A stretch of DNA of 64,000 nucleotides from the NCBI GenBank assembly GCA_041650515.1, contig JBAZLA010000002.1, positions 167,659 to 231,658 on the forward strand, read 5' to 3'. A model generated the notes under the pieces. That model was not told where the DNA came from. It searched no databases and saw nothing but the letters and a program-made list of their open reading frames with translations. Below, piece after piece: positions 24,001-52,941 of this stretch. This stretch comes from Patescibacteria group bacterium (GTDB lineage Bacteria > Patescibacteriota > Patescibacteriia > JACRDY01). The position numbers and the translations under genes are program-made. Every line of letters starts with the position of its first letter. Position 1 is the first letter of the stretch.

Positions 24001-27000
24001 ATGGAAAAAGTAAAAAAATTTCCAAAAACACACTCGCGTCTTTTCTTAACCGGAGCGGCCGCCCTAGTTTTAGTTATCGGTATCTATTCCGCTGTGCTTT
24101 ATCCCCTAACCGGAACTAAAGCTATACCACTGCCCCCGAGTGAATTAGCTGACGCCTCTGCTGCTCCTCAAGGATTAGCTGATGGCGTGACTGGTGCCGA
24201 AGACACCACCTGGACTTTTACTTTTGATAATACTGGCGGCGAGGCTTTGACTGCTTTTGATCCGCCAGGAGTGATGACTCAAGACATGATTAAAATCACC
24301 CTGCCTAACGTTGAGCAAGGTAGCCCGTGGTTTTCTAGTCCTGATGATTTGGTGGTGACCGCTAACCCAGGGGCCACGGGTTTAATTTTCCAAGGTAATT
24401 TTTATGCCAACGACGCTCGGCTCACCTATGACGGTCAAGAATATGTTAATTCGACCGAGGACGGAGATGAAACTGCCATTTACTACAACGGCGGTGGCAT
24501 GGACGGTATGATTTCAGTTAGCGAGGACAATACAGAAATTGATCTGGCCGACGGCATTAATGATTTTAATTTAGCTCTCTGTGAAGTTGTTGTTTCAGCT
24601 GGAGGAGAACCAGTAATGAGCTTTCCCACAACCCTTTTTGCCAGAAATGATAATTATCCTGACGCTGCTACCTTGGAGACAGAAGTCGATTCTTGGACAA
24701 TGGACGACGGGGAAGGCGGCGAGATGACAATCGACTTAACCATCGACCTCTGGGCACCAGCGGCTTTAACTGCCAACGGCGCTAATACTGCCTATACCTG
24801 GAATACACCTGATGGTGTTACTTTTGATCAAGAACCGACCCTATATTTCGACGCTCAAAAAATTCTAGATCATTCTCAGCCAGATGGCCCGCCAGATATT
24901 ATCAAAATCCCGTTAGTGGACGGCCAAGATGCTCTGGGTGAATTTAGTATAACCATAGTTGGTTTAAATGTGCCTACTGCTCCCTTGGCTAATTTAGAAG
25001 ATCTAGAATTTATGCTAGAAACCTGCCGTTTAGCCGACCCGACGCAGCCGGATAGCGAGTGTGCTACTCTGGAAAGCGGTGTCTCGGTAGTCACTGTCGA
25101 CCGGCTGGGGGAAATGATTCCTTATAATGCCGATTTTGATCTTTATCCGGCCAACTACGCTACTGGGGAAAACACCAACTATACCATCTCTTTCACTGCC
25201 CCAAGCGGCTTAAGTGACACTAATAAAATTGTTTGGCAGTTCCCCGGCGGCTTTATCCTAACAGCGGCTGACGTGGAATTCGGCCTGCCTGACATTAATG
25301 GCACTGGCGCTGACACACCAGCCATTGCCCCGGACGATAACTCTGGTCTAGGCGGCGGCATCTATGCCAATACTATCAATGGCAAAAACCAACTGGAATT
25401 AACGGTCACCGGCACAGTCAATCCTGGCGATCAGGTCACAATTACAGTTAAAGACATCTATAATCCCAACATGGTGGATGTCTATCGCGGTTTTGGTATT
25501 TACACTGCCCTAGCTAACGGTGGTATTATTGATGGCTTACCAGCTAACGCCGGCCAAGAACCAGAAAGAAACGGCCCATCATTGCTTGAATCCCTGCCGA
25601 TCGGCGGCACTAATACAATCATCGGCACGGTGAAAAAAGACGAAGGCGCCGGCCCAGTCCCCTTGGAAGCGGACGAAGCAACCCAAATTATGATTGGCCT
25701 AGGCTGTCCAGATAAAGGCTACTTTGTTGGCCAAAAATATCTACAACCAGATGGCAGCTTCACCTACAATAATTTATTAGACTGTAACTACAAGATGAAT
25801 ACCGAACCGACTGATAAAGAAAATAACCCGACCTTCTTTATGGATTTTCTCCAGCCAGCGATGCTGGATATCCCGGCCCAAGGCGGGCAATCTTTCACTG
25901 TTGATCCGACTTTTATTGTGCCCGACGCTTACATCAGCGGCACGATAACTAGTGATGATTCAGTCGGCGGCAGTCAAATAGTTTTTATGAATGCTTTTAA
26001 TAGCACTCACATGTCCTGGTCACCAGTTTTTCAAGAAGACCCGATAGCTAATCCGGCCGCGGCGCCGGGTTTGACGGCGGAAGGCACTGGTTATTTTGTT
26101 CTGCCGGTCAAAAGCGACTACACCTGGTCAATCAACATCATGATAAATAACCAGACTCAAACGCTTATTGATCTAATAACTGATGACGAATACTGGCCAC
26201 CGGTGATTAGCCCGGTGGTAGTAGCTGAGGCCGGGGAAACTTATGATATTGGCGCGAACGCTTTTGTTAAAGCAGATAAAACCCTTAATATTTTTCTCCG
26301 CAACGCCCAAAACGACCAGATTATGAACTCAGCCTGCGTGGCGGTCCGTCGACCCAACCCGATGGGCTTTATGGGCGGTTTTGCTAAATGCTCCTCGCAG
26401 AATATCGGCGATGTTCAGGGCTACCAATTTAAAGTTCCTTCGGGCGCGCTTTTAGTGGATATCGGCCAATGGGGACTGGGTAAACCAATCCAGAAACAGA
26501 TTACCGTCAAAGCTAGCGACAATGCCGTGGATAAAACTTTTTATCTGGAAATGCCAACCTCCCATATTGACGTGACGGTCGAAGATAGTGATGGCAATCC
26601 CCTTAACCAGGTTTCGCTCTTTGCCCACGGCTCTAATGGCTTTGGCCAGGCGGTTACTGGTTCTCAGGGCCAAGCCACAATTTACGTTCGCGAAGGTGTT
26701 TATCGAGTAGAAGGGTTCGTACCTAACCTCGGCCAACTGGATGACCAAGATGGTATAGTCGTTAACGAGGAAACTAGCCCAGAAATAACCTTCACTGTTG
26801 ATGTTAGTGAATTAAATATTATTTCTGGCGTTGTTTATATTGATGCTAATAGTAATAGCGAATATGACGCTGGCGAAGGCGTTAGCGGCGCCCAAATCGG
26901 CTGCCATGGTCCTGATGGCGGTAACGGCACAGTCACTCTGACTGACGGCACTTACCAGTTGCGGGTCAAGGCCGGCACTTATAAAGTCGGCGGCTGGTCC

Positions 27001-29493
27001 AACCAAACCGGCGGCCTGCCGGAGCAAGAGATTGATGCCAGCGGCGGCGATGTGGAAGATGTTGACTTTGCTATCAGCTCGCCGGGTACTCTGCGGATCA
27101 CGGTGGAAGGCGCGGCCGGTCTGGAATTTTTTGCCGGCGCCCATAACCCGACCACCCATAAAGGCAATGGCACTAACGTCTGGACAACCACCGGCGACAA
27201 TCTAGTTACCACCCTGCCTTTGCCCGAAGGTACTTATAATCTTCATGTCGGTTCCCCGGCTTTCGGCGAGATATCTAATCCGGGTGGCGATCAGGCTACT
27301 ATTGTTGCCGGCCAAACCACAGCTGTCAGCTACACCTTGCCTGACTTTAACACCTTAAGCGGCACGGTCACTGACGGCACTGATCCAGTGGAAAATGCTG
27401 AGGTCTGGGCAGCCAATAAAAACGGCCCGGGTTTTGGCAAAACCTTAACTGACGCTAACGGCGACTATTCACTGAAATTAACTGCCAATTTTGACTATGA
27501 TGTCGGCGCTAACGTACCCGGTTATATCTCAACGGTTAGCAATATTGAAGATTTTGACGGCGATGTTGCCGACTACGATCTGGTGATCACCGAAGCTACC
27601 GGCGTTATTACCGGCACCGTAATTGATGGCGGCGGCGACCCATTAAACCAGGGTTTTGCCTGGGCGGAAAAATCTGGCGAGGATGCTTGGGTCGGCGCAC
27701 CAGTGGAAGCTAATGGCACTTTTGAGCTGCCAGTTGATGACGGTATTTGGGTTGTTCATGCTGATTCGCCTTGTTACCAGCCGGATTTTGAGGGCAACGA
27801 AGCCCAAGACGGCGATGATTTGGAAATTGAATTGACTTATATGGAAGGCTGCGAACCACCCAAGCCAAAAATGAACGCCATTACCCCGGCTTCCGGCGGC
27901 ACTATTTATAATGATGAAGACGAAGACGGTACTAATGATGTGGAAGTGGTTATTCCCGCTAATGCCCTGGGCACCGGCAGTGATAATGTCACCTTCTCGG
28001 TCACGCCCAATGACAATCCGATCTCGACTCCTAATGCCACGCCCTTAAAAGCCGAGGATTTAGACGCCACCTCTGCCAGCGGCGGGGCGATCTCCAGTCT
28101 CAATACTAATATTGAAATAACCATTGATTATGGCTCTTTGGATCTGCCTGATGATTTTGATGAATCAACCATGCAGTTGGCCTACTTCGACAGCGCCAGC
28201 AATAACTGGGTAGCTATTGCCTCAACAGTCAACACCAGTAATGAAACTATCACCGCGCAGGCCGACCACTTAACTACTTTTGGCATTATTACCAATGTCC
28301 CAGACGCACCAACTAGCCCCAGTGCTGAAGCGGACGGCACCGAGATCACTCTATGCTGGAACACTTCAACCGGCGCCACCAGTTACAACGTCTATCGCAG
28401 TGATGAAGAAGACGGCACCTATACCGCTGTTGGCTCAAACGAAAGTACCGGCTACACTGATTCTGACCTAGAAGGCGAAACCACTTATTACTATAAAATA
28501 ACGGCTGTTAACAGCGCCGGCGAGTCAGCTTACTCCGAGGATACTAACGCTACCACGGGCGCAGCTAGCGGCGGCCGCAATGACGTGCCAGGTGGCGGCG
28601 GATCCGCTACTGTCCCAACTACCCCGACTGCTCCAACCACTACTACCGCTGGCTCAACCGCTCTAACTGTTGGCCAGGGCGGAACAACAACTGCCACCAC
28701 GAGCACGGGTTCAACACTCGTGATCAATGTTCCCGCTGGCGCCATGACCTCTGCCACTACCCTCTCGGTTACACCTCAAACGAACGCCGAAGCCGCCGCG
28801 CCCGCGCCAGCGGCCACTAGCGGTTTATTTATGGTTGGTAACTTAGTATTTGAGATCGATAATTCTAGCGGTCAAAAAACCTTTACGACCCCCCTAACTC
28901 TAACCTTTAATTATACCGACGCTCAAATCAGCGGCCTTGATGAGAATAGTTTGAAGGTTTATTGGTACGATCCCGTCACTAGCCAATGGCAACAGCTAAC
29001 TACTACTATTAACACAGCCACTAATACTCTAACGGCAACGATTAGTCATTTAACCGTCTTTGGTATTTTAGGTACAGCCACGACCACCGAGCAACCTGAA
29101 GGGCCAGCTGAACAAACCCTGCCAACCGGGATTAAGCTCTACCGTTCACCCAGTGTTTCAACTGTTTTCTTGATCGACGAAACAGCTAAGACCAAACGGC
29201 CCGTCTTTAATGAGATTGTCTTTCTAGCTATGGATTATAATTGGTCAGATGTCCAGTTCGTATCGGAGAGTAAGCTAGCTGAATATACTTTAGGTAAGAT
29301 GCTGCTCTACCCCGAAGGATCGGTAATTAAGTTCTTAACTTCACCTAAAGTTTTTAAAGTCGGCGCTGACTATATGCTCCATTGGATTACTAACGAAACC
29401 GTCTTTAGCCGATTGGGCTACAGCTGGAACCAGGTTAAAGATTTAACTGACTCTTTCTGGTCGCTCTTCAAAGAGAGTACGGACGTTAATTAG
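24001..29493 (+). CDS. Giant secreted cell-surface protein with FN3 and Ig/CarboxypepD_reg-like domains
   Basis: 1830 aa. Signal/TM LFLTGAAALVLVIGIYSAVL. Fibronectin-III-like segment (PDAPTSPSAEADGTEITLCWNTSTGATSYNVYRS...TTYYYKITAVNSAGES). A T/A/G-rich linker. The C-terminus carries the shared ~45-aa paired repeat (IVFLAMDYNWSDVQFV...ETVFSRLGYSWNQVKDL). Confidence 0.7.
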   Translation: MEKVKKFPKTHSRLFLTGAAALVLVIGIYSAVLYPLTGTKAIPLPPSELADASAAPQGLADGVTGAEDTTWTFTFDNTGGEALTAFDPPGVMTQDMIKITLPNVEQGSPWFSSPDDLVVTANPGATGLIFQGNFYANDARLTYDGQEYVNSTEDGDETAIYYNGGGMDGMISVSEDNTEIDLADGINDFNLALCEVVVSAGGEPVMSFPTTLFARNDNYPDAATLETEVDSWTMDDGEGGEMTIDLTIDLWAPAALTANGANTAYTWNTPDGVTFDQEPTLYFDAQKILDHSQPDGPPDIIKIPLVDGQDALGEFSITIVGLNVPTAPLANLEDLEFMLETCRLADPTQPDSECATLESGVSVVTVDRLGEMIPYNADFDLYPANYATGENTNYTISFTAPSGLSDTNKIVWQFPGGFILTAADVEFGLPDINGTGADTPAIAPDDNSGLGGGIYANTINGKNQLELTVTGTVNPGDQVTITVKDIYNPNMVDVYRGFGIYTALANGGIIDGLPANAGQEPERNGPSLLESLPIGGTNTIIGTVKKDEGAGPVPLEADEATQIMIGLGCPDKGYFVGQKYLQPDGSFTYNNLLDCNYKMNTEPTDKENNPTFFMDFLQPAMLDIPAQGGQSFTVDPTFIVPDAYISGTITSDDSVGGSQIVFMNAFNSTHMSWSPVFQEDPIANPAAAPGLTAEGTGYFVLPVKSDYTWSINIMINNQTQTLIDLITDDEYWPPVISPVVVAEAGETYDIGANAFVKADKTLNIFLRNAQNDQIMNSACVAVRRPNPMGFMGGFAKCSSQNIGDVQGYQFKVPSGALLVDIGQWGLGKPIQKQITVKASDNAVDKTFYLEMPTSHIDVTVEDSDGNPLNQVSLFAHGSNGFGQAVTGSQGQATIYVREGVYRVEGFVPNLGQLDDQDGIVVNEETSPEITFTVDVSELNIISGVVYIDANSNSEYDAGEGVSGAQIGCHGPDGGNGTVTLTDGTYQLRVKAGTYKVGGWSNQTGGLPEQEIDASGGDVEDVDFAISSPGTLRITVEGAAGLEFFAGAHNPTTHKGNGTNVWTTTGDNLVTTLPLPEGTYNLHVGSPAFGEISNPGGDQATIVAGQTTAVSYTLPDFNTLSGTVTDGTDPVENAEVWAANKNGPGFGKTLTDANGDYSLKLTANFDYDVGANVPGYISTVSNIEDFDGDVADYDLVITEATGVITGTVIDGGGDPLNQGFAWAEKSGEDAWVGAPVEANGTFELPVDDGIWVVHADSPCYQPDFEGNEAQDGDDLEIELTYMEGCEPPKPKMNAITPASGGTIYNDEDEDGTNDVEVVIPANALGTGSDNVTFSVTPNDNPISTPNATPLKAEDLDATSASGGAISSLNTNIEITIDYGSLDLPDDFDESTMQLAYFDSASNNWVAIASTVNTSNETITAQADHLTTFGIITNVPDAPTSPSAEADGTEITLCWNTSTGATSYNVYRSDEEDGTYTAVGSNESTGYTDSDLEGETTYYYKITAVNSAGESAYSEDTNATTGAASGGRNDVPGGGGSATVPTTPTAPTTTTAGSTALTVGQGGTTTATTSTGSTLVINVPAGAMTSATTLSVTPQTNAEAAAPAPAATSGLFMVGNLVFEIDNSSGQKTFTTPLTLTFNYTDAQISGLDENSLKVYWYDPVTSQWQQLTTTINTATNTLTATISHLTVFGILGTATTTEQPEGPAEQTLPTGIKLYRSPSVSTVFLIDETAKTKRPVFNEIVFLAMDYNWSDVQFVSESKLAEYTLGKMLLYPEGSVIKFLTSPKVFKVGADYMLHWITNETVFSRLGYSWNQVKDLTDSFWSLFKESTDVN

Positions 29494-37434: not shown

Positions 37435-37559
37435 AGTGCTTAATACATAGTACATAATACAATAGTAACAAATAACTAACTTCCCCGGTCAACTGCAACC
37501 TTGGAATTCACCGAATAATACTGGAATTAGTAGCTGCGTACTAGGTACTGTGTACTAGG
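37435..37559. repeat. Heptad-periodic inverted-repeat hairpin element (GTACTNN arrays)
   Basis: Left arm atacatagtacataatac. Right arm gcgtactaggtactgtgtactagg. The right arm contains the TAG stop (complement at 37555-37557) of the O-antigen-ligase gene. Confidence 0.65.
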
Positions 37560-38916
37560 TGCTATTTTTAACAAACTTCGTCGCGGCTAAAGCAACGCCT
37601 AACGGAAACCACATTTTGGAAACAAAATAAGACGTCTGAAAAAGCTGAAAAACCATAGCGCCAATAGCGACCACTAAACAAATCAAAACCACGCTCGACC
37701 ATGGGTCCTGTCTAGTCAAGGCAAATCGGTAAGCCCAGACAATCCGCCACAAAACAAAAACCAATAATAAAGTAAAGGTAAACAAACCCAGAACGCCCGA
37801 CTCAGCCAATAGTTTTTGGATCACTCCGTGCGACTCTTGAGTATCGCCAAACTCCAGCATAAAAATCGGATCACTGGCTACCAGCTCAGTAAAACTACCT
37901 GCGCCATTACCTAATAATGGATGTTTGTGCCACGACTGGATGGCAATCGTTGTCAGATACAATCGATGCCAATTAGAGCTCTGGGCAATATAGCTGGTCG
38001 AAAACAAATACATATAAATCAAAGCCGGCGAGAGACAAATAGCGATCAAGACTGTGTAAACCACAATCTTTTGCCACTGGCGCCAGTACTGGATTAGAAA
38101 TAAGATTAATAACTCCACAATCAAGGCAATCCAGCCTGTCCGCGAAAAAGTCGCTAAATTAATCAAAACCATTAATAAGACACCCAAAAATAACCAACGT
38201 TTTCTGTTGCCTTCTCTAGCCTGCCAAATCAAAATTACGCTAAACGGAATAGCGGCGATCAGCACCTCGGCAATCAGATTATGATTCCAGCCTAATGGCC
38301 GGATACCAAAGAGCGCTAACGGCACCGCCCGCCGAAAAAAGCCCTCAGCGCCGACACCAGCTATCAACGACCAGAGACCCATGATCGCCACACTAATACC
38401 CAAGAAATAAAAAATCTTAAAAATGTTTTTGAGGATTTTTTTGTCCTCAATCAGATTGTAAGGCAAGATAACAAACATCAGATAAAAAAATGACAACGGC
38501 CGCAGAATATATTTGATAGTCAAAAGATTGTCAGCCGCATTAATCAATGACAAACTAGAAGCAATAATAAACAAGACAAAATAAAATAAACCCGGGAAAT
38601 TGGCCCAAGATAGCTTTTGTTCACCTTTGAAATGGCGCACTAACGCCTTGATCGCCCAAGCGACAAAAACTACCATTGCTAAGACATCAACATAGGGCAC
38701 GTTTAAGTCTTTATAAATTATTTCCAGATAAGTCAGCGGGTACAAAAAAGTAATCAAATAAAGGCCCAGGGTGGTATAACGGTAAAAAAGGCCAATTGCC
38801 AAAACCAGAATTAGGACAAATAAAATATAGCTGGGTTTTATTATCACAGCTAAAACCGCCAAAATTACCAAAAAAATGGCTAGCAAATAAATTTGGGCCT
38901 GATTTTCTTTGTTCAT
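37555..38916 (-). CDS. O-antigen ligase / Wzy-like polytopic membrane protein
   Basis: 453 aa, roughly 10-12 predicted TM helices, and a large periplasmic loop with H/R-containing motif typical of the O-antigen ligase (Wzy_C) family. Sits in the glycosyltransferase cluster. Confidence 0.62.
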   Translation of the reverse strand: MNKENQAQIYLLAIFLVILAVLAVIIKPSYILFVLILVLAIGLFYRYTTLGLYLITFLYPLTYLEIIYKDLNVPYVDVLAMVVFVAWAIKALVRHFKGEQKLSWANFPGLFYFVLFIIASSLSLINAADNLLTIKYILRPLSFFYLMFVILPYNLIEDKKILKNIFKIFYFLGISVAIMGLWSLIAGVGAEGFFRRAVPLALFGIRPLGWNHNLIAEVLIAAIPFSVILIWQAREGNRKRWLFLGVLLMVLINLATFSRTGWIALIVELLILFLIQYWRQWQKIVVYTVLIAICLSPALIYMYLFSTSYIAQSSNWHRLYLTTIAIQSWHKHPLLGNGAGSFTELVASDPIFMLEFGDTQESHGVIQKLLAESGVLGLFTFTLLLVFVLWRIVWAYRFALTRQDPWSSVVLICLVVAIGAMVFQLFQTSYFVSKMWFPLGVALAATKFVKNST

Positions 38917-39007
38917 TAACTTAATTATATCCTATTTAAGCCAAAAAATAAAGATTAGTCCGTCCTCAGCCCATAGTAATCCGTATGTCATGACGGTGGA
39001 TCACCCA

Positions 39008-39505
39008 TCATCCACGATTATTCCGATCCTTACCCCAATTTTTGGGGTTATTTTTAATATATTGGTAAATTTTTTGATATTCCCATTGGTTACGGATAAC
39101 CCGGTCATGGAACGACCGTTGCCATTGAAAATGGAAATCACGGGAACGAATTTGTTTGGTCACAACATTTTTAAATGAATTAACAATTTTCGATAACAAA
39201 CCATATCGCATTGTAGGGACAGGGCATTGCCCTGTCCCTACGGGATCATCAATCATAATTATTCCGTGTAAATGGTTGGGCATAACGACAAAAATATCAA
39301 TTTGAATATTTAAATAATGTTGGGGTATTTGTTGCCAACATTTTTTGGCGATTTTACCATATTCATTCAATACCATTTTCCCGTTGATAACATCGCCAAA
39401 AACCATTTCCTTATTGTGGGTGCAAATGGTAATGAAATATTGGCCAATTTGGGAATAATCATATCCTAACCAACGGTTTAATTTGCGTTCACGGTATTCA
39501 ACCAT
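39008..39505 (-). CDS. tnpA: IS200/IS605-family Y1 (HUH) transposase, REP-associated tyrosine transposase-like
   Basis: 165 aa. HUH motif MPNHLHGII. C-terminal catalytic Tyr region QWQRSFHDRVIRNQWEYQKIYQYIKNNPKNW matches the Y1_Tnp/RAYT pattern (WQ..YHD..IR....Y.YI..NP). No tnpB partner. A perfect 29-nt palindrome lies inside the CDS at 39213-39241. Confidence 0.8.
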   Translation of the reverse strand: MVEYRERKLNRWLGYDYSQIGQYFITICTHNKEMVFGDVINGKMVLNEYGKIAKKCWQQIPQHYLNIQIDIFVVMPNHLHGIIMIDDPVGTGQCPVPTMRYGLLSKIVNSFKNVVTKQIRSRDFHFQWQRSFHDRVIRNQWEYQKIYQYIKNNPKNWGKDRNNRG

Positions 39506-39555
39506 AGTGCCATGATAAATGGCTGGGGATTAAAAAAATCTAAAATATTTTATCA

Positions 39556-39583
39556 ATAAAAAAACCCGTACGGAGTACGGGAC
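39556..39583 (-). terminator. Terminator downstream of the island Cys-rich lipoprotein gene; also upstream flank of the transposase gene
   Basis: aaaaaaa-cccgtacggagtacggg. The palindrome contains GTAC twice. Confidence 0.6.
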
Positions 39584-39639
39584 CTGCTCCACTGAGGAAG
39601 ATCAGGGTTTGGTAATGGTTCCCTCCTGGGGAAATGGGG

Positions 39640-41280
39640 TCAGGGCGCGTAGTTGGCCCGGACCATGTACTCCTCGGTCCACGCCGGGTTGGAGTAGTAG
39701 TCCTCCAGCCAAGCGTCGGAACATTCATCAAGCGGGAGCACGGTGGGCGGCGTGGTGCAGGACGACGCGTAGTACTCACCCAGACCGGCGGGGCTGGCCT
39801 TCCAACGGAGTTGGCTCCACTGTCCCAAATGGACGACGGTGAAGACTCCATTGATGTCCAACCCGCAGTCTTGGCAGTTGCAGATGAGCTGCGCCGCGAA
39901 GGGGTGCTCGTCGGTGCCGTTGCAGCGGTCACCCGGCGGGGTGCCCGACTCGGTCACCGCCACCAGGAATTCCACCGTCGCGCTGGCCGCGCCGCACGTG
40001 TCGATGAAGTACAGCCGCAGAACGTGAAAGCCGACGGTCAAAGAAGCGGTGCCGTAGTGGTACTCGTAGGGTCCTTCGCCCTGCGACCACGAGGAACAGA
40101 CAACCGTCGGGGGTAACAACGACGGCACATAGGCGCTGCCGTCCACGGCGAACTGCACCCGGCCGCGCTCGGTGACGCTGCTCAGGTTGCAGTCGGCGTC
40201 CAGGTAGTTGACCACAATGTCCAGGTTCGCGCCCTGGGCAAAAATGATCGGGTCGCTGGCCGGCACGCCGTCGACCAAAACCTGGTTGAGCCCGATGATC
40301 GGCGCCGTGTTGTCCTGGCACTCGGTGCTGATGGTGGTACATGAGTCGTTGCCCTCGTCGCACTGTTGCGTCAAGGGGTTGCACTCGTCCGGGCCGACGT
40401 TGACGCACTGGCCAACCTGGCACTCGTCCAAACCGTCGCACCAGTAGCCGTTGTTGCAGGCGCTGCCGTTGATCTTGTCGGTCCAGCCCGTGGGGTTGAG
40501 CCCGGGCTGGCACTCTTCGCACTGATTCAGGGGGTTGTCGTCCCCGGTCTGGTAGACGTACCCGCTGATCGTGCACTCGGTGGGCACAGGGATCAGATCG
40601 CATTCGTCGTTGCTTTCGTCACACACCTCGGTGATCGGATCGCACTCGTCGGGACCCACGTTGGCGCAGACGCCGGCCTGGCACTCGTCCAAACCGTCGC
40701 ACCAGTAACCGTTGTCACAAACCGCACCGTTGGGACGGACGGTCCAGCCCGTGGGGTTGAGCCCGGGCTGACATTCTTCGCAGGGATTCGCGGGGTTGAT
40801 GGCGCCGCTCTCGTAGTGATAGCCGTTGATGATGCATTCGTTGTCGTCGTCATCGTCGTCATCGTCACCCAACGGATCGCATTCATCCGCGGACTCGTTG
40901 CAAACCTCCGTGAGGGGGCTGCACTCGTCCGGCCCGACGTTCACGCAGTCGCCGGCCTGGCACTCGTCCGGGCCGTCACACCAATAGCCGTTGCTGCAAA
41001 CCGCACCGTTGGGACGGACGGTCCAGCCCGTGGAGTCGAGCCCGGGCTGACATTCTTCACAGGAATTCGCGGGGTTGATGGCGCCGCTCTCGTAGTGATA
41101 GCCGTTGATGATGCATTCGTTGTCGTCGTCATCATCCAGGGAGATGTCATCATCGGTGTCGCCACCGTTGTCGTCGTCATCGCCGCCGCCGTACTCGCAG
41201 GCGACAACGAAGCCGACAATCAGGAAAAAGAACAAGGCGACCAACAGTCCGTTGGTCAGGGGGGTTCTCGTCGTCTTCAT
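39640..41280 (-). CDS. Secreted Cys-rich lipoprotein with three tandem ~90-aa Cys-rich modules and poly-Asp linkers (GC-rich island)
   Basis: The ORF is tracked to 41307, but the RBS 'ggagg' lies 7 nt before the ATG at 41280 (MKTTRTPLTNGLLVALFFFLIVGFVVAC = signal plus lipobox). Repeats: NECIINGYHYESGAINPAN.CEECQPGL..TGWTVRPNGAVC.NGYWCDG.DECQAG.C.NVGPDEC. Poly-D runs DDDDNGGDTDDD and DDDDDDDD. The region is much more GC-rich than the rest of the window. Confidence 0.6.
   Translation of the reverse strand: MKTTRTPLTNGLLVALFFFLIVGFVVACEYGGGDDDDNGGDTDDDISLDDDDDNECIINGYHYESGAINPANSCEECQPGLDSTGWTVRPNGAVCSNGYWCDGPDECQAGDCVNVGPDECSPLTEVCNESADECDPLGDDDDDDDDNECIINGYHYESGAINPANPCEECQPGLNPTGWTVRPNGAVCDNGYWCDGLDECQAGVCANVGPDECDPITEVCDESNDECDLIPVPTECTISGYVYQTGDDNPLNQCEECQPGLNPTGWTDKINGSACNNGYWCDGLDECQVGQCVNVGPDECNPLTQQCDEGNDSCTTISTECQDNTAPIIGLNQVLVDGVPASDPIIFAQGANLDIVVNYLDADCNLSSVTERGRVQFAVDGSAYVPSLLPPTVVCSSWSQGEGPYEYHYGTASLTVGFHVLRLYFIDTCGAASATVEFLVAVTESGTPPGDRCNGTDEHPFAAQLICNCQDCGLDINGVFTVVHLGQWSQLRWKASPAGLGEYYASSCTTPPTVLPLDECSDAWLEDYYSNPAWTEEYMVRANYAP
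40300..41130. repeat. Tandem ~280-bp DNA repeats (3 copies; the two at higher coordinates are near-identical) inside the Cys-rich lipoprotein gene
   Basis: Blocks such as cgcggggttgatggcgccgctctcgtagtgatagccgttgatgatgcattcgttgtcgtcgtcatc occur at 40791 and 41071. accgttgggacggacggtccagcccgtgg occurs at 40726 and 41006. The period is 280 bp. Confidence 0.8.
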
Positions 41281-41337
41281 TTCGAAACCTCCGTTTGCAG
41301 AAGACATTACTCACTTCGTTTCTGTCGCTTCGGTGTT

Positions 41338-42888
41338 TTACCAGGAAATTACGATTCGTCCCGCGCCACCGAAATAGCGGGATTCATCGGTTACCAGGGG
41401 GTTATCAAAGTCGGGCGACCATTGTCGCCAGCCAAAGGCCGGTCCGAGCATCAGCCGAATCGGGTGTTGCCCGAAGAGCCAGTACTCATAACCGATACCC
41501 AGGCTGACAAATTGGTCAAGACCATACGGTCCGCCCTGACTGCCCAGACTCTCCGAGATGGCGTTGCCGCTCACCTCAAAGGCCAGATAGTGGGACGGGG
41601 TAATGGCCCAGGCCGCGCCAAGATGGCCGCTCCCAATGAGGGAGTTGTGATAGCCATACCCGACGTAGCCACCGACCCGAAGCACGTTGGGTTGTCCGGC
41701 GATGGTGAAATCGCCCTCAACCTCGAGAACGCCGAAACCGCTTGCGTGTTGCGCATTCGCGGTAACGACACCTCCAGCACCAACGTGCAGAAATTTCGGC
41801 CAAGACACAGTAACCGGAACAGGAACAAGAACAGGAACTTTTCCCGAGGGACGTTGCGTCCGCTCGGCTGCGAGTCGCTGACCCGATTCTGCCGTGTTAA
41901 GGGCAGCTTGGGCCCGGGCTCGCAGATCCGCAAAGTCATCCCCGGTGTAGATCCGGAGGAAGGCTTGGCCTCGGTCTTGAACCTTGGCCCAGTCTTTTGA
42001 CTTTACTGCGGCTTCAATCTCTTCGACCTCCTCTTCCGCCAGTTGGCGGTTGACTTGCCCCACCATCTCAGGCAGGGTGCCCCTGGTGATCACCAGGGCG
42101 GTGACCGCCGTAGGCGGAGTGAGGTCAGGCGGGGTAGTGGTGGGTTCTTCTGTCTCAGACGGCAGATTAGGCTCAGCCTGCGCCAAGACCCTTTCCGACC
42201 ACCGAGACGTCTCTGGCTCTGGGGCGTTAGTCACCCGGTAGCGCTCACCTGGCGGCGGCGCCGACACGGTGTACTCCCGATAGCCCCCTTGGCCGTAGAC
42301 AAGTTGGAACTCATCATTAAGCCAGTGAACTGCCGGGGTTGTACTAACGTCCCAGATCTCCACCCAAACTTCTTCTTCCAGCACATCGCTGCCCAAGGTG
42401 AGCATAATGGCCTCACCCTTGTACGGATATTCGGTCCACTGACCGTCCACCAGTACGCGGGCAATGATCCGACCGTCACGTGGTGTCTCCTTAAACCGCA
42501 GCTCTAACCGGTCGGAATTGGGCGGCGGGGTAAAGGTTCTGATGCACGGGCCGGCATCAATCGGTATTTCCGGCCCGTCATATCCGGCAGATTGCACCCG
42601 GATGGCCTCAGCCACGCCCAAATACCCGTAGAGCGTGACCTCCGCGACTTCGGTTACCGGTTTAGCCAGGATATGATGCCAGACCTGGTACTTGTACGTA
42701 CCGGCCGTGACTGTCGCTTTCCAGGGATGGTTGCTGTCAAATGGATGGCTCTCGGGATCCCTATTTCCCGGTCGCCACAACCTCAGCTCATACACGCCGT
42801 CAGGGCAGATTGCGCTGGTGGCGCATTGAATCCCGATCACGGGCGGTTTGAGTTTCGGTGGTGAACCGCGAGCAACCGCTTCCTCCAC
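41338..42888 (-). CDS. Putative outer-membrane beta-barrel-like protein (GC-rich island); start uncertain
   Basis: 516 aa as tracked, but the start is actually GTG-encoded. An in-frame upstream extension encodes KTKGKFLIAVFLLLIFGSV (signal peptide) with an AGGAGG RBS near 42945, so the true start is probably non-canonical and upstream. The C-terminal ~180 aa are rich in alternating G/Y/aromatic beta-strand residues and end in ...GRIVISW (OMP-like C-terminus). Confidence 0.5.
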   Translation of the reverse strand: MEEAVARGSPPKLKPPVIGIQCATSAICPDGVYELRLWRPGNRDPESHPFDSNHPWKATVTAGTYKYQVWHHILAKPVTEVAEVTLYGYLGVAEAIRVQSAGYDGPEIPIDAGPCIRTFTPPPNSDRLELRFKETPRDGRIIARVLVDGQWTEYPYKGEAIMLTLGSDVLEEEVWVEIWDVSTTPAVHWLNDEFQLVYGQGGYREYTVSAPPPGERYRVTNAPEPETSRWSERVLAQAEPNLPSETEEPTTTPPDLTPPTAVTALVITRGTLPEMVGQVNRQLAEEEVEEIEAAVKSKDWAKVQDRGQAFLRIYTGDDFADLRARAQAALNTAESGQRLAAERTQRPSGKVPVLVPVPVTVSWPKFLHVGAGGVVTANAQHASGFGVLEVEGDFTIAGQPNVLRVGGYVGYGYHNSLIGSGHLGAAWAITPSHYLAFEVSGNAISESLGSQGGPYGLDQFVSLGIGYEYWLFGQHPIRLMLGPAFGWRQWSPDFDNPLVTDESRYFGGAGRIVISW

Positions 42889-42958
42889 TGACCCGAAGAT
42901 CAGCAGGAGGAAGACGGCTATCAGGAACTTTCCTTTGGTCTTCGTGACTTCCTCCTTT

Positions 42959-44014
42959 CTAGAAGCGGTAACCGACCCGGAACATCACCCCGTAGGGGAT
43001 GGTGACGCGCGTAACGTCTTCCTGGGCCGGGCTCTTGGACTCGAACTGGAGTCCGCAGTTGGGGCCAACACCCCAGATCAGCCGATCGTCGAAGTGACGG
43101 CCAACCAGGCCGGCGTTAAGGATCGGAAACCCCCAGCGATCGGTATGGTTGCCGTGCTCGACTTGGAACCACCGCGAGGTGATCCCAGCTTCGAAACCGG
43201 CCCAGCTCTCGCCGAAAATACGGTACCCGCCACCGACCTCGGTGTCGAGACCCGCATGTTGGTTGGGGCCCAACCCGCCGTGGAAGAAGAACTCGTGCCT
43301 TCCCCACAGCAGGTCAAACCCGCCTTCGGCGATGAAGTAGGAGTAATTGCCGTTGCTGTCCATGTAGGTTTGGTAACCCGCGTACAGCAGAGCGCTCACC
43401 CCGTCGCCGCCGCTCGCACCCGCAGCACCCGGTCTGGCGGTCGGCATGAAGATCCGCGAGATGATGCCTTGCGGGCTATCCCGGTTCTCCACCCGAACTT
43501 CTTCATCCGGATCAACCGGTTCGATCTCAACGTCCGCAATCCCGCGGCCACGCTCACCCGGAGCGCCAGCCGCACCGCTGGTCGGCGGTTTGCGAACATA
43601 AATCCGAACCACCCGGTTTTTGTTGCGGAAGTTCCCGTCGGCATCGCACAAAGTTTGTGCCTCGGGGAGACCAGCCTCAATCTCAACTCGCTTTACCTCA
43701 GTTGCCCGCAGGTGAGCGAGTTGGCCGTTGCCGGTGAAGCCGCTGGTTTCGCCGTGGTAATCGGCGTAACCAGTAAACTTCACTTCCCAGCCCGGGTAGT
43801 CGGACCTAATCTTGGCGGCGACCGCCTTCAGCTTATCCATCTGTGCCTGACGCACATTGGACGGAAAAGCTTCCGGCAATCGCCACTCGTTGATCGTAAA
43901 ATCGGCGGTGGCGTGGATCAGGATCCACCCATCGCCGGCCTCTGCCGTTTTGGCACTTGCCAGGATGGCGAGCGCCACGATGGACAATGCCACCGCCAAC
44001 AGGATTCTTCGCAC
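42959..44014 (-). CDS. OmpA/MotB-like peptidoglycan-binding domain protein with C-terminal beta-barrel-like region (GC-rich island)
   Basis: 351 aa. Signal peptide MRRILLAVALSIVALAILASAKTAEA. OmpA_C-like motif FTGYADYHGETSGFTGNGQLAHLRATEV...NRVVRIYV. The C-terminus ...MFRVGYRF ends in Phe like diderm outer-membrane proteins. Confidence 0.6.
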   Translation of the reverse strand: MRRILLAVALSIVALAILASAKTAEAGDGWILIHATADFTINEWRLPEAFPSNVRQAQMDKLKAVAAKIRSDYPGWEVKFTGYADYHGETSGFTGNGQLAHLRATEVKRVEIEAGLPEAQTLCDADGNFRNKNRVVRIYVRKPPTSGAAGAPGERGRGIADVEIEPVDPDEEVRVENRDSPQGIISRIFMPTARPGAAGASGGDGVSALLYAGYQTYMDSNGNYSYFIAEGGFDLLWGRHEFFFHGGLGPNQHAGLDTEVGGGYRIFGESWAGFEAGITSRWFQVEHGNHTDRWGFPILNAGLVGRHFDDRLIWGVGPNCGLQFESKSPAQEDVTRVTIPYGVMFRVGYRF

Positions 44015-44078
44015 AATTGCCTCCTTCCTACGTCTTTTGCGTAGGTATCAGAAAGGTTGAATCACCGTTTTAAGACTC

Positions 44079-44127
44079 ATCTAGCACTAACTTCTGCCAA
44101 ATAACTTATCAAACAAAAGTTAGTGCT
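44079..44127. repeat. 49-nt hairpin with conserved 27-nt loop, copy 1 (boundary of GC-rich island)
   Basis: ctagcactaac-ttctgccaaataacttatcaaacaaaa-gttagtgctag. Perfect 11-bp stem. Confidence 0.65.
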
Positions 44128-44258
44128 AGATTGCTAGAGTTAAAAACACTAATGACAAAAATTAACACTTTATAATAACTTTATAACTTTTGAACTTTAT
44201 AACTTGTTTTTGATGTCTCTCTACACTGACATGTTTGTCAACGAACTAACCAGCCAGC

Positions 44259-44307
44259 CCTAGCCTTTGCCAAATAGCTTATCAGACAAAAGCTAGAGCT
44301 GGGTAAA
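44259..44307. repeat. 49-nt hairpin with conserved 27-nt loop, copy 2
   Basis: cagccctagc-ctttgccaaatagcttatcagacaaaa-gctagagctg. The stem sequence differs from copy 1, but the loop is conserved at 23 of 27 positions. Confidence 0.65.
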
Positions 44308-44389
44308 AGCACTCAGTCTGGTCTATTAACCGCTAGGCTAACAGACCAATTCAATGCTTTTTTGTTTTCTTGCTTTTTTGCTTTCTTGA

Positions 44390-45403
44390 TTAGACTTCAA
44401 TCCCTCGGCTGTCTTCCTCCGTGGAAACCGGATACGCCCAGTGGTCGTACATTGTTTCAATTTTATCATCAGTCAGATCTGACTCCATCACCGACGCCAC
44501 TGGCTCAGCCGCCACTCGCACCGGCACCAATTGCGGCTCAGCTGAATTCAAAATATTCTCGATACTAATTTTGGTCTTAGCTACTTCGCCATCATTACTA
44601 AACCGCACCGGAATCACCGCCTCATCATCAATCGTCTCTTGAGCTAAAACCGATTGAGATTGTGGTCGAGCGTTGACTAATGTTTTATTTAGAGCCGCCG
44701 CCAGATCGCTATTCAATCTAGTTGTAGCTACTGTTTTATTTTTTTCTTCGCCCAATAAATAAATCACGGCTAGACTTAAAACTGCACCTAGCGCTAGGGC
44801 GATCCCCAGATTTATAACGATGTTAGGCTGGACTGGGTAACGTGAAGTTAACGGCGCATCAATATTTTTGATTCCAACTTCTTGGCCACCGCCATGATAC
44901 TCTGATCCCTGGTTAACCAAAACCGAGGAGATCGCTTGGGCGTAGGCAATCGCCTGATTGCGATTGTGATGATAGACCTCGATTTTTAAAATACCGGTCT
45001 CGGGCACCACCTCGGCGTTGACTGTCCGCTGCCATTCTTTTTTGCGCTCGATCGGATCAATCGATAGATCATCTTTGAGGGTGGAATTAGTCTGCGTCAC
45101 CCGATCTAGAAAAGATGAGGTATAAACCACCGAAGCTAGATTACTAGCCATCTTCTCAGCGGAACGCAAGGCCGTATAGGCATCAATCGAGGCCCCCTGC
45201 TTTTGGATAACCAAAAGCTGGATGGTCGAACGGTATTTGAAAGTCTGGACCAAGGTCAAAACCAAGGTAATAATCAAAATACCGCCGATAATACCAACTA
45301 AAATTTGGTAACGACTTTTCACTAGTTTTAGATACTGATTTAAATTCATAAATTTAAATTTAGATTTAAATAAATTATAAATAAATAACCGATCAAATAA
45401 CAC
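44390..45403 (-). CDS. Polysaccharide co-polymerase (Wzz/chain-length determinant)-like protein
   Basis: 337 aa. Two TM helices (ILVGIIGGILIITLVLTLV near the N-terminus, NLGIALALGAVLSLAVIYLLG near the C-terminus) flanking a periplasmic domain. This is PCP/Wzz architecture, and the gene sits in the polysaccharide locus. Confidence 0.65.
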   Translation of the reverse strand: MLFDRLFIYNLFKSKFKFMNLNQYLKLVKSRYQILVGIIGGILIITLVLTLVQTFKYRSTIQLLVIQKQGASIDAYTALRSAEKMASNLASVVYTSSFLDRVTQTNSTLKDDLSIDPIERKKEWQRTVNAEVVPETGILKIEVYHHNRNQAIAYAQAISSVLVNQGSEYHGGGQEVGIKNIDAPLTSRYPVQPNIVINLGIALALGAVLSLAVIYLLGEEKNKTVATTRLNSDLAAALNKTLVNARPQSQSVLAQETIDDEAVIPVRFSNDGEVAKTKISIENILNSAEPQLVPVRVAAEPVASVMESDLTDDKIETMYDHWAYPVSTEEDSRGIEV

Positions 45404-49013: not shown

Positions 49014-50062
49014 TTAATTTTCTTCCAGCCGTTCAAAAAAATCAGCCGTAATCACCATCAGAGCCGTCGCTACCGGAATAGCTAATAAAATCCCGATCAA
49101 ACCACCAATCTTAGCGCCAATCATTAGGGCAATGATTGTCACTACTGGATTAAGCCCAACGGCCCGCCGCATAACCTGGGGCACCAGAATATTATTTTCT
49201 AACCACTGCATCACAACATAAAAAATCAAAACAAACAAAGCTAACGACGGTGAAACGGTAAAAGCGACAAAAATCGCCGGGATAGCCGAAAGAATCGGCC
49301 CCAAATATGGAATAAACTCACCCAAAAAAGCGATCAAAGCTAAGACCAAAGCAAACTGACGCATAGTTGGATCAATAAAACCAAACCCGTTCATGCCAAT
49401 AAAAACTAAACAGCCAACAATTAATGACAGAACCACCTGTCCTCGCAGCCAGAGACCGATTTTATCTTTAACCTTGTAGATCAACTGAGTCAAATAAGGC
49501 TGATATTTAGCCGGCGCCACCAGCCGCAGGATTCTTTTAACCGCATTTTCTTCGACAATAATATAAAAAGTAATAACCAAAATGACACAAAAAGAAATTA
49601 CCCCGCCAAAAATGCTAATCACAGTTGATAATACACTCTGACCGCTGTTTTCTAAAGTTAGCTGCAACGATTTTAAGCTCTGCTGAATACTGTCGCCTAA
49701 TCCATGCTGACGAGAATAGTATTAATATTAGATAAACTAGTATCAATCTTCTGCCAATAAGCCGGAAAATTGGAAGAAAACTTCTGAATCTGGTTAGAAA
49801 CTAACGGCACAAATAAAATAATAACTAAACTGATCAAAACGATCAGCGTTAGATAAATCGTCAAAACGCTGACCCAAGCCGGTATCCGATGGCGCCGAAG
49901 CCAGCTAACCAGCGGATCAATAGCCGAAACAAAGATTAAAGCCACAAATAAAATAATCAAAATCCCTTTGATCAAATACAAAAACCATAATAACAAAATT
50001 ACGGCCACGATTTTAAAAATCGAAGAAGTGGAAAGCTCAATTTTGACCTTTTGGTCCGGCAT
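49014..50062 (-). pseudogene. AI-2E family (UPF0118/PerM-like) transporter, interrupted by a frameshift
   Basis: The N-terminal 121-aa ORF (49697-50062) and the C-terminal 217-aa ORF (49014-49667, PYLGPILSAIPAIFVAF motif) together make one ~345-aa AI-2E transporter. The downstream reading frame stays open across the junction (RQHGLGDSIQQSLKSLQLTLENS) but in a different frame from the upstream ORF. That means a single frameshift, or a sequencing error. Confidence 0.55.
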
Positions 50063-51950: not shown

Positions 51951-52424
51951 ATGATTACTTCTATGCCCATTCTTGCTGACAATAAAAAAGCCCTTTTTGA
52001 CTACCAAGTCGTTAAAACTTGGGAAGCGGGTTTGATTTTGACTGGCCAGGAGGTCAAATCTGTTCGCAATAAACAGCTTAGCCTTAAAGAATCTTACGTG
52101 GTTATTAACTTAACCGCTAACCGGTCGCCTCAAGCTTATCTGCTCAACTGCCATATCTCGCCCTACAAAATGGCCGGCCACTTAACTGGCTATGATCCGA
52201 CTCGCACTCGCCGCCTCTTATTACACCAAAAAGAGATCAATTCGCTTTATGGCCAAGCGCAGCAAGCTGGCTTGACATTAATCCCCTTACGAGTGTATAC
52301 TAAGGGAACTAAAATTAAAGTTGAAATTGGCTTAGTTAAAGGAAAAAAACAGTTTGATAAGCGAACGGCCATCAAAAAACGTGAGGTCGACCGCGAACTC
52401 CGCCGTAAATTGAAAAATATCTAG
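51951..52424 (+). CDS. smpB: SsrA-binding protein SmpB
   Basis: 157 aa. DYQVVKTWEAGLILTGQEVKSVR and the C-terminal basic tail (KREVDRELRRKLK) match SmpB. tmRNA lies directly downstream. Confidence 0.9.
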   Translation: MITSMPILADNKKALFDYQVVKTWEAGLILTGQEVKSVRNKQLSLKESYVVINLTANRSPQAYLLNCHISPYKMAGHLTGYDPTRTRRLLLHQKEINSLYGQAQQAGLTLIPLRVYTKGTKIKVEIGLVKGKKQFDKRTAIKKREVDRELRRKLKNI

Positions 52425-52543: not shown

Positions 52544-52941
52544 GGGGATGACGGGTTTCGCTAGGAAGATTATTGATTAAACTAGGCAAGTCGAGCTAGT
52601 ACTCTCGTAAAACAGGCTAAAAAATATAAGTGCCAACTTATACAACAAAGCCAAACAAGCAGTAGCTTCGCTATTTGCTGTTCCGGCCTTTGCTCCAGTC
52701 GTCGCCTAATTGCGTACGACTCATCGGTCCCTGATGTCTAATAGGGGTTTTACCGGTGTTATACCTTAGACTAGATAAACCGGACGGTCTGGGGCCGTTT
52801 ATCAAAAATTACCAGACTAGGTAAGCTCGGGTTTTGTCCGTTTTCCACTTAGCTGACCGAACCAAACCAAATGTGACTACGCTTGTAGAGCTAGCTTATT
52901 CAACTTTCTAGACGTGGGTTCAACTCCCACCATCTCCACCA
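52544..52941 (+). ncRNA. ssrA: tmRNA (ssrA)
   Basis: 5' end GGGGAUGACGGGUUUCG pairs with the 3' acceptor strand CAUCUCC-A-CCA. tRNA-like T-arm GGGTTCAACTCCCACC. CCA is encoded. Directly downstream of smpB. A candidate tag ORF ends ...AFAPVVA-TAA, but the frame is not verified. Confidence 0.85.

Follow-up and report, generated by a model that had tools for sequence, protein, structure and literature searches.

The genomes of Patescibacteria are known to hold genomic islands by the hundred: in 125 genomes such islands make up as much as 13% of genome length, and they include cross-phylum transfers whose donors count diderm phyla among them (PMC12455944). An outer membrane has been proposed to be absent in these bacteria (PMC12102498). 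The second described system of relevance is that of the repetitive extragenic palindromic (REP) sequences and the tyrosine transposases associated with REPs (RAYTs), in which the gene is classically flanked by palindromes (PMC2817692, PMC5581495); RAYT-class genes are typically single-copy and domesticated, with self-mobility not evidenced (PMC5581495, PMC6006769), and Y1 enzymes act on DNA hairpins (PMC6006769). Here we describe a GC-rich, three-gene island that lies beside a RAYT-like gene in 64,000 nucleotides of contig JBAZLA010000002.1 (this whole 64-kb stretch is called the window below), from a genome entered in NCBI as 'MAG: Patescibacteria group bacterium' (MAG, metagenome-assembled genome). 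We conclude, with a probability of roughly 0.78, that the island is an unameliorated operon horizontally acquired from a high-GC diderm bacterium and placed between the Wzy-like and the Wzz-like gene of a polysaccharide locus of this member of the candidate phyla radiation (CPR). The island and its parts are as follows (aa, amino acids; ORF, open reading frame; GC3, GC content at third codon positions).

39557..44047, minus strand: high-GC island, a three-gene operon for exported envelope-type proteins (composition, GC3, GGAGG sites)
42959..44014, minus strand: gene 1, a 351-aa ORFan; its signal peptide is followed by a divergent OmpA-like domain (about residues 38-140), and a Gly/Pro/Ala linker leads to a tail of 150 aa rich in Gly and aromatic residues
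41338..42945, minus strand: gene 2, an ORFan of 516 aa (from GTG 42888) or 535 aa (from ACG 42945) (sequence, AlphaFold2 model, in-frame upstream reading)
39640..41280 (maximal ORF to 41307), minus strand: gene 3, a lipoprotein of 546 aa from the second ATG; after its lipobox (VVAC) come three Cys-rich modules with poly-Asp linkers, then a C-terminal region of 225 aa
40335..41136, no strand assigned: three tandem DNA repeats of ~262 nt that encode the Cys-rich modules (repeat search)
39555..39581, minus strand: intrinsic terminator directly behind the last gene of the operon, CCCGTAC-TCC-GTACGGG (39581-39565) followed by the T-run TTTTTTTATT, coinciding with the left compositional boundary (terminator scan, fold, sequence)

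Over its length of about 4.5 kb the island has 60.6% GC, compared with 43.8 ± 1.9% (maximum 49.5%) in 46 backbone windows of the same size, and its tetranucleotide distance from the backbone profile lies 8.7 standard deviations above the backbone mean (z = 8.7). GC stays at 58-63% in the 1-kb windows across 40001-44000 and at 39-50% elsewhere; at a resolution of 100 nt it is 53-74% within the island and 22-46% outside, stepping from 38% (39500-39599) to 60% (39600-39699) on the left and from 64% (43900-43999) to 22% (44100-44199) on the right. Reading of the sequence places the edges at about 39557-39565 on the left, with the rise in GC at ~39565-39600, and at 44047 on the right. Since GC3 is raised as well (0.83, 0.64 and 0.73 in the three minus-strand island ORFs, 0.40-0.48 in six backbone genes), the GC excess is not due to amino-acid content, and the pattern of GC1, GC2 and GC3 supports the minus-strand frames over the long plus-strand shadow ORFs of the island. 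An initial annotation of this DNA had reported an abrupt, large rise in GC, and the checks that it proposed (sliding GC, GC3 and tetranucleotide profiles) confirm it.

The three genes read as a minus-strand operon, each with a strong Shine-Dalgarno site (GGAGG, spacing 5-7 nt): GGAAGGAGG, 5 nt and GTG at 44014 for gene 1; AAAGGAGG, 5 nt and ACG at 42945 in the initiation region of gene 2; and ACGGAGG, 7 nt and ATG at 41280 for gene 3. GGAGG or AGGAG at most 22 nt upstream was found for only 2 of the 40 backbone ORFs, compared with 3 of the 3 island genes. Rare in the backbone and present on every island gene, these sites are therefore a second, independent mark of foreign origin, while the host itself seems to use Shine-Dalgarno-independent initiation.

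The same extreme switch in composition might be produced by an assembler that spliced a fragment of a co-occurring high-GC genome into the CPR contig, an option left standing by the initial annotation, and the organism has been seen in one sample only, so the join is without confirmation from an independent sample. The assemblies speak against such a splice. Identical DNA spanning the whole island is present in the ENA assembly ERZ27247363 (MEGAHIT-type contig k141_1227450, 200 kb), and among the Logan contigs of run SRR8542065 one (L002, window 52887-41104) runs across the 44047 junction from backbone into island and another (L004, window 40445-35131) across the 39560 junction from island into backbone. 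At either junction the Logan, ENA and NCBI assemblies do not differ by a single base. The sole Logan break (41104/40445) falls not at a junction but among the three tandem repeats of 262 nt in gene 3, and a halt there is what one expects of a short-k assembler. Two false joins to the same backbone gap would be needed, and both joins are reproduced base for base by different assemblers. The two boundary regions have no repeat in common above chance and no sequence that could mislead a de Bruijn graph; moreover, the insert is a tidy operon in an intergenic gap, co-directional with the flanking genes. The backbone on either side belongs to the following genes.

37555..38916, minus strand: Wzy_C / O-antigen-ligase-like membrane protein, 453 aa, backbone flank (Pfam Wzy_C, E 1.4e-13; GC 41%, GC3 0.48)
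44390..45403, minus strand: Wzz/CpsC-like chain-length determinant, 337 aa, backbone flank (NCBIfam TIGR01006 polys_exp_MPA1, E 4.5e-8, below its cut-off)

Both flanks form a single surface-polysaccharide locus, with GT4 glycosyltransferases and Wzy_C on one side and the Wzz/CpsC-like protein and an HtrA-like protease on the other, and the gene order p266, HtrA, Wzz is preserved in a distant relative (locus L068). With base-identical junctions and one polysaccharide locus continuing on both sides, the suspicion of a chimera is not borne out, and we regard it as very unlikely. The low-GC, CPR-like character that the same annotation had given to the backbone holds, the host being a low-GC Patescibacteria MAG in which NCBI lists the island proteins as hypothetical proteins WC480_02400, WC480_02405 and WC480_02410 on a 243.5-kb contig.

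As to the source of the island, relatives were found for the Cys-rich modules of gene 3 and for no other part. Gene 3 most likely starts at its second ATG (41280), because the GGAGG site stands 7 nt before that codon. Its modules, of ~80 aa each, begin at residues 65, 158 and 245, and poly-Asp runs stand before modules 1 and 2 only; the earlier description of a lipoprotein with three Cys-rich modules is therefore right as to the modules and wrong in having all of them separated by poly-Asp. Neither the whole protein nor a single module matched NCBIfam (TIGRFAMs included; E ≤ 0.1) or Pfam (E ≤ 10), and the suggested TIGR02232-like Cys repeat is accordingly dropped. The best relative of gene 3 is a Myxococcota M64 metallopeptidase (35% identity over half of the query, E 7e-42); four metagenomic proteins matched more weakly, and no relatives of the 225-aa C-terminal region were found. 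A scan for the pattern NPANPCExC in one genome per GTDB species gave 58 confirmed loci, almost all in Myxococcota or 'Deltaproteobacteria' (Sandaracinaceae, Polyangia, Myxococcales, Anaeromyxobacter, Corallococcus and Bradymonadales), with two in Phycisphaerae; their median GC is 70%, and a few lie at 55-58%.

The island copies share with the Myxococcota repeat the tandem arrangement of a ~80-aa module C-x-I-x-G-x(5)-G-x(2)-N-P-A-N-P-C-E-x-C-Q-P-G ... W ... D-G-x-x-C-x-G-x(3)-C-x-x-G-x-C. They differ from it in being only 35-50% identical and in that their second Cys is gone, x-C-x being replaced by Y-H-Y or Y-V-Y, and further in that the modules are joined by poly-Asp and linked to a lipobox and an unrelated C-terminal domain. 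On this module the donor would be an unsampled high-GC diderm, for which a member of the Myxococcota or a neighbouring group is the leading, weakly supported candidate. Across Myxococcota secreted proteins the module, which there begins C-x-I-x-G-x-C, was also seen in tandem arrays, fused to the M64 peptidase, FG-GAP repeats or other partners, and the M64 fusion carries a C-terminal sorting tail. A Cys-rich extracellular module that is widespread in Myxococcota and undescribed in Pfam and NCBIfam is a by-product of this work of possibly lasting use.

Gene 1 adds a diderm envelope signature of its own. Pfam OmpA (PF00691) matches residues 53-128 with E 8.6e-4 and 20.0 bits, below the gathering threshold of 27.2, and the same stretch is hit by six OmpA-type models of NCBIfam (E 0.002-0.09). 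The segment reads G-Y-A-D-Y-H-G ... N-G-Q-L-A-H-L-R-A-T-E-V ... N-R-V-V-R-I, which we take, by eye, to resemble the peptidoglycan-contact pattern of the OmpA family (G-x-T-D ... N-x-x-L-S-x-x-R-A-x-x-V); BLASTP against the C-terminal domain of E. coli OmpA was not significant. The 150-residue tail contains 18% Gly, 17% aromatic residues and one Cys and ends in VMFRVGYRF, with hydrophobic residues at positions -3, -5, -7 and -9 from the C-terminus. Such an alternating hydrophobic pattern is that of a classical outer-membrane-protein C-terminus, and E. coli OmpX ends in GVGYRF and OmpW in AGYRF. Of the OmpA_C-like, peptidoglycan-binding protein ending in GYRF that had been proposed earlier, the OmpA likeness and the VGYRF end stand; the domain is, however, N-terminal (53-128) and not C-terminal, and sub-threshold.

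No relative of gene 1 except itself was found in a word-indexed search of 5.8 billion proteins or in a full phmmer search of 1.84 billion representatives, where, at these database sizes, ~45 bits or more are needed for significance and relatives below roughly 25-30% identity escape. The AlphaFold2 single-sequence model has a confidence (pLDDT) of 33 and is unusable. Gene 1 is thus like proteins of the OmpA, Pal, OmpX and OmpW types in its signal peptide, OmpA-like segment and Gly/aromatic-rich, Cys-poor tail ending in VGYRF. It differs from E. coli OmpA in its inverted order, the peptidoglycan-binding part coming first and the putative barrel last, and from the OmpA family in that its profile scores are all sub-threshold, with neither a barrel-family match nor a usable model.

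The N-terminal part of gene 2 is beta-rich; a Pro/Thr linker and a helical hairpin follow, and the protein closes with a Cys-free tail of 160 aa that is rich in Gly and aromatic residues and ends in RIVISW. As called by ORF callers, including that of NCBI, from the GTG at 42888, gene 2 is without a signal peptide. An in-frame signal peptide nevertheless lies upstream of this GTG, from the ACG at 42945 (42889-42958, minus strand): KTKGKFLIAVFLLLIFGSVEEAVA, which reads T-K-T-K-G-K-F-L-I-A-V-F-L-L-L-I-F-G-S-V-E-E-A-V-A. Either translation begins at the ACG, or this codon is a mutated ATG, and the gene 2 product would then be made poorly or left unexported. Among 5.8 billion proteins gene 2 found itself alone, and Pfam, PDB and PHROG gave no match. 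Its AlphaFold2 single-sequence model (pLDDT 38) is confident only in the helices at 272-345.

The proteins of genes 1 and 2 have no mutual similarity by BLASTP, and apart from the OmpA-like hint in gene 1 neither had a match in Pfam, NCBIfam, PHROG or PDB. Pfam at E ≤ 10 gave nothing relevant for the isolated C-terminal regions or for the N-terminal region, and PDB sequence searches of the C-terminal regions were empty as well. Eight plausible strands can be read by eye in each C-terminal tail. In a test of alternating hydrophobicity the two tails scored z = 2.6 and 1.6; the OmpX control came out at z = 0, and the test was discarded as non-discriminating. The porin-type beta-barrel of the initial annotation is an impression drawn from composition and the C-terminal motif, to which profiles, PDB searches and structure models lent no support. 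The combination of a signal peptide with a C-terminal beta-signal ending in an aromatic residue, necessary and not sufficient for membership in the outer-membrane beta-barrels, is present in gene 1 (VMFRVGYRF) and, only if it is started at ACG 42945, in gene 2 (RIVISW).

Beyond the island terminator, 52 nt from the island edge and on the same strand, lies the gene that the initial annotation had taken for the possible vehicle of the island.

39008..39505, minus strand: RAYT-like HUH/Y1 gene, 165 aa (NCBIfam REP_Tyr_transpos, Pfam Y1_Tnp, HUH and Tyr motifs)
39213..39241, no strand assigned: perfect 14+14 REP-like palindrome GTAGGGACAGGGCA-T-TGCCCTGTCCCTAC within the RAYT ORF (repeat search; DNA fold z = -6.4)

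The existence of a 165-aa HUH Y1 gene at this place without a tnpB partner was confirmed: it is present in one copy in the window, has no TnpB-like neighbour and lies between Wzy_C and the island. NCBIfam REP_Tyr_transpos (the equivalog NF047646) matches it at 1.3e-14 and 54.3 bits, below the cut-off of 80, and Pfam Y1_Tnp at E 0.0039; H78-L-H80 and Y149-I-x-x-N-P are invariant in an alignment with three relatives from Bacteroidota and Chloroflexota. Sequence searches gave no PDB relative and no close relative in GTDB species representatives, and tblastn against plasmids found RAYT relatives at 32-41% identity in Fulvitalea and Spirosoma (both Bacteroidota), Leptolinea and others. With 35.7% GC, a GC3 of 0.34 and no Shine-Dalgarno site, the gene has a GC content like that of the host or lower. 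It resembles described RAYT (TnpA_REP) genes (PMC2817692, PMC5581495, PMC6006769) in its HUH and Tyr motifs, its size of ~165 aa, its single copy and the lack of TnpB, and differs from them in scoring below the equivalog cut-off and in having its palindrome within the ORF instead of flanking it. Judged by these features, it is best described as RAYT-like and not as an IS200 transposase.

The palindrome GTAGGGACAGGGCA occurs once in the window, at neither island edge, and no REP population is visible in the 64 kb. It encodes V-G-T-G-Q-C-P-V-P-T, a stretch within the variable loop between the HUH and Tyr motifs. Near-identical GTAGAGACA(A/T)GGCA palindromes (consensus GTAGrGACArGGCA) flank the RAYT genes of Spirosoma and Fulvitalea: in the Spirosoma locus (L072, 1075-1108) the palindrome GTAGAGACAAGGCA/TGCCTTGTCTCTAC begins at the stop codon, and in the Fulvitalea locus (L070) four palindromes bracket the gene (332-357, 474-503, 1110-1137 and 1268-1296). 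The REP sequence thus appears to be conserved with its RAYT clade from Bacteroidota to Patescibacteria, being located here in the coding sequence. A RAYT clade with a cross-phylum GTAG palindrome is the second by-product of possibly lasting use.

At its other side the island borders on DNA of quite different composition, which holds the hairpins noted in the initial annotation.

44048..44389, minus strand: low-GC structured spacer from the Wzz-like gene to the island (GC 22-44%; fold)
44079..44131, minus strand: hairpin 1, 18-bp stem and 17-nt loop (fold -14.9 kcal/mol on the minus strand vs -13.8 kcal/mol)
44252..44303, minus strand: hairpin 2, with the same loop (fold -13.6 kcal/mol on the minus strand vs -9.8 kcal/mol; full stem only on the minus strand, through G.T wobbles)

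The RNA of the minus strand of the spacer folds with -128 kcal/mol, compared with -84 ± 4.8 kcal/mol for shuffled sequences (z = -9.1). The two copies of a 49-nt hairpin with a conserved loop that had been described at this boundary are real: the hairpins (49-53 nt) share a 25-nt loop motif, found twice in the window where none is expected by chance, and differ by three two-sided compensatory changes in the stems and at two positions in the loops. The minus strand gives the more stable fold in both cases, since G.T wobbles there take the place of A.C mismatches. This would suit an RNA, or a single-stranded DNA specific to that strand, running the same way as the flanking genes. A covariance model found no further copies in the 64 kb or the fetched loci, and 38917-39007 is without a related hairpin; the loop motif is missing from the JGI metagenome and IMG/VR collections, and Rfam gave no family match to the spacer, its hits lying far below the gathering scores and looking like chance. 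A third hairpin (44306-44356), with a T-rich run after it on the plus strand, also lies in the spacer; within 44015-44395 there are, besides, three direct copies of AACTTTATAA (44168-44205) and one small hairpin beside the ribosome-binding site.

These data bear directly on the possibility that an IS200/RAYT-borne transposon, in which the Y1 enzyme mobilised three passenger genes with the hairpins as its ends, brought in the island. The Y1 gene is indeed only 52 nt from the island edge and on the same strand, structured hairpins do stand at the far edge, and Y1 enzymes act on hairpins (PMC6006769). The two hairpins, however, cannot be the two ends of the island because both are on the same side, in low-GC DNA; with none beyond the RAYT-like gene, there are no left and right ends bracketing transposase and cargo. 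The palindrome of the RAYT clade, GTAGrGACArGGCA, occurs once, within the gene and not at the island edges. The RAYT-like gene, at 36% GC and without GGAGG, is unlike the cargo, from which the cargo's own terminator separates it; RAYT-class genes are single-copy and domesticated, self-mobility not being evidenced (PMC5581495, PMC6006769); and no second copy of the unit of RAYT-like gene and island was found anywhere searched. We consider such a transposon extremely unlikely. The earlier proposals of a transposase with passenger cargo and of hairpins as element ends or att sites find no support, the former for the host-like GC of the RAYT-like gene, the intervening terminator and the lack of bracketing repeats or shared hairpins, the latter as both hairpins stand at one boundary, with none at the other, and are unrelated to the GTAG palindrome. 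On these grounds the hairpins are neither the ends of the island nor the REPs of the RAYT-like gene. The spacer may be a leader, promoter or processing region of the island operon, or a small remnant resembling a palindrome-associated transposable element (PATE), and if the RAYT-like gene is in its turn a separate insertion, as it may be, the Wzy-Wzz gap would be a spot permissive to insertion.

Another possibility concerns the use of the cargo. The three ORFs are intact, have Sec or lipoprotein export signals and strong ribosome-binding sites, and lie co-directionally downstream of a surface-polysaccharide gene and behind a highly structured leader; the Cys-rich module, moreover, serves in extracellular proteins elsewhere (the M64 peptidase and FG-GAP fusions). 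All of this would fit a functional, adaptive acquisition, in which the CPR cell expresses the donor-type proteins, such as in the role of adhesins, or of mimics with which it engages a diderm host at the peptidoglycan or the outer membrane. We nevertheless hold it to be unlikely: the signal peptide of gene 2 is not preceded by a canonical start codon, the unameliorated composition points to a recent arrival with little time for selection, database protein searches gave no relatives in other Patescibacteria, and no beta-barrel assembly (BAM)-type machinery is known for the group, whose outer membrane is proposed to be absent (PMC12102498). A bolder scenario, to which we give very little credence, is that a patescibacterial episymbiont captured a diderm envelope module from a Myxococcota-like host or prey and uses a predicted fusion of an OmpA-like peptidoglycan anchor with a small barrel, a second barrel and the Cys-rich lipoprotein to dock to or insert into the outer membrane or cell wall of the host, and that, separately, the REP of the RAYT clade colonised its own coding sequence. 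If true, host-derived outer-membrane proteins would be the attachment device of a monoderm-like parasite.

The initial annotation had left lateral acquisition from a high-GC Gram-negative donor as its other option, and this one is supported by composition, GC3, the GGAGG sites, the OmpA-like domain, the lipobox, VGYRF and the Myxococcota-type module. As to how horizontal acquisition from a diderm could have come about, a search of the island boundaries for direct or inverted repeats (≥10 nt), for att sites and for target duplications found none beyond chance, and viral, plasmid and PHROG searches revealed no viral, phage or plasmid relative or source; the island proteins are unique among 5.8 to 15 billion proteins. 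Since the island has neither an integrase nor att repeats, a target duplication or transposon ends, we infer uptake by illegitimate recombination of captured DNA, to which natural competence or contact with a host or neighbour, for instance, may have given access. The cargo would be an envelope module of the donor, made up of an OmpA-like protein tethered to peptidoglycan, another protein that possibly holds a small beta-barrel, and a lipoprotein of the cell surface. As an outer membrane is proposed to be absent from the host, this cargo probably functions poorly or is decaying. The RAYT-like gene would be separate and of the domesticated type, its adjacency reflecting a permissive insertion spot and not a relation of vehicle and cargo. 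Because the start codon of gene 2 has likely been lost and amelioration is absent, the capture appears to be recent and probably non-adaptive.

Several points weigh against this conclusion. The assignment of the donor depends on one promiscuous repeat module, genes 1 and 2 being without a detectable relative, and tblastn found gene 1, gene 2 and the C-terminus of gene 3 in none of the 58 module loci, so that a donor locus with the three genes was not found. The OmpA-like match of gene 1 falls below the Pfam threshold. As regards the barrels, composition, strands read by eye, export signals and aromatic C-termini make small barrels plausible for the tails of genes 1 and 2 without proving them. 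Exact-protein look-ups of the flanking genes, aimed at strain variants, led to contigs of the ENA and Logan assemblies only, probably of one sample (SRR8542065 / ERZ27247363); because of this probable common origin, the agreement at the junctions is assembler-independent and not sample-independent. Finally, the empty site was not recovered, a search of JGI metagenomes for the HtrA-like neighbour yielding short contigs of ~45% identity that end before the site.

A few other features of the window may be recorded. At ~49718 it is without one A (GAATAGT, compared with GAATAAGT) relative to the ENA and Logan assemblies, and the missing base splits a gene for an AI-2E-family transporter, 349 aa elsewhere, into ORFs 49014-49667 and 49697-50062. 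Two giant ORFs, at 24001-29493 (plus strand, 1830 aa, with CarboxypepD_reg and fn3 matches) and 17555-21271 (minus strand, 1238 aa), lie in the regions of next most deviant composition (GC up to 52%; tetranucleotide distance 0.024-0.029, mean 0.015), and no other long gene than that of 1830 aa lies on the plus strand in a run of minus-strand genes that extends over ~50 kb. At 144 bits, a tmRNA gene was found that adjoins smpB (52544-52941 and 51951-52424) at 8.5 kb from the island. This tmRNA gene (ssrA) was considered as the integration site of the island and rejected, because of that distance and the conserved backbone genes in between.

If the simple account of a captured diderm operon holds, the locus is another clean example of streamlined CPR genomes acquiring and keeping the DNA of distant diderms. 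The island may also serve as a marker of neighbours, a Myxococcota-like partner being a testable lead. For the curation of MAGs it carries a caution, as assembler-independent checks of junctions, the usage of ribosome-binding sites and GC3 separate a real island from a chimera. It has no bearing on the question of an outer membrane in CPR bacteria, since its genes are unameliorated, unique to one genome and, in one case, without a canonical start.

Compared with the genomic islands described in Patescibacteria (PMC12455944), the present one is alike in being a deviant block of a few kilobases in a streamlined genome, with cargo from another phylum and no need of an obvious integrase, and in its location, cell-surface and polysaccharide loci being typical landing sites. 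It differs in its unusually large jump in GC (+17 points), in that two of its three genes are without detectable relatives, and in its outer-membrane-type cargo, which a monoderm-like host should not be able to use. The island is hence of a kind already documented in Patescibacteria, and what sets it apart is the size of the GC jump, its outer-membrane flavour and its two genes without relatives.

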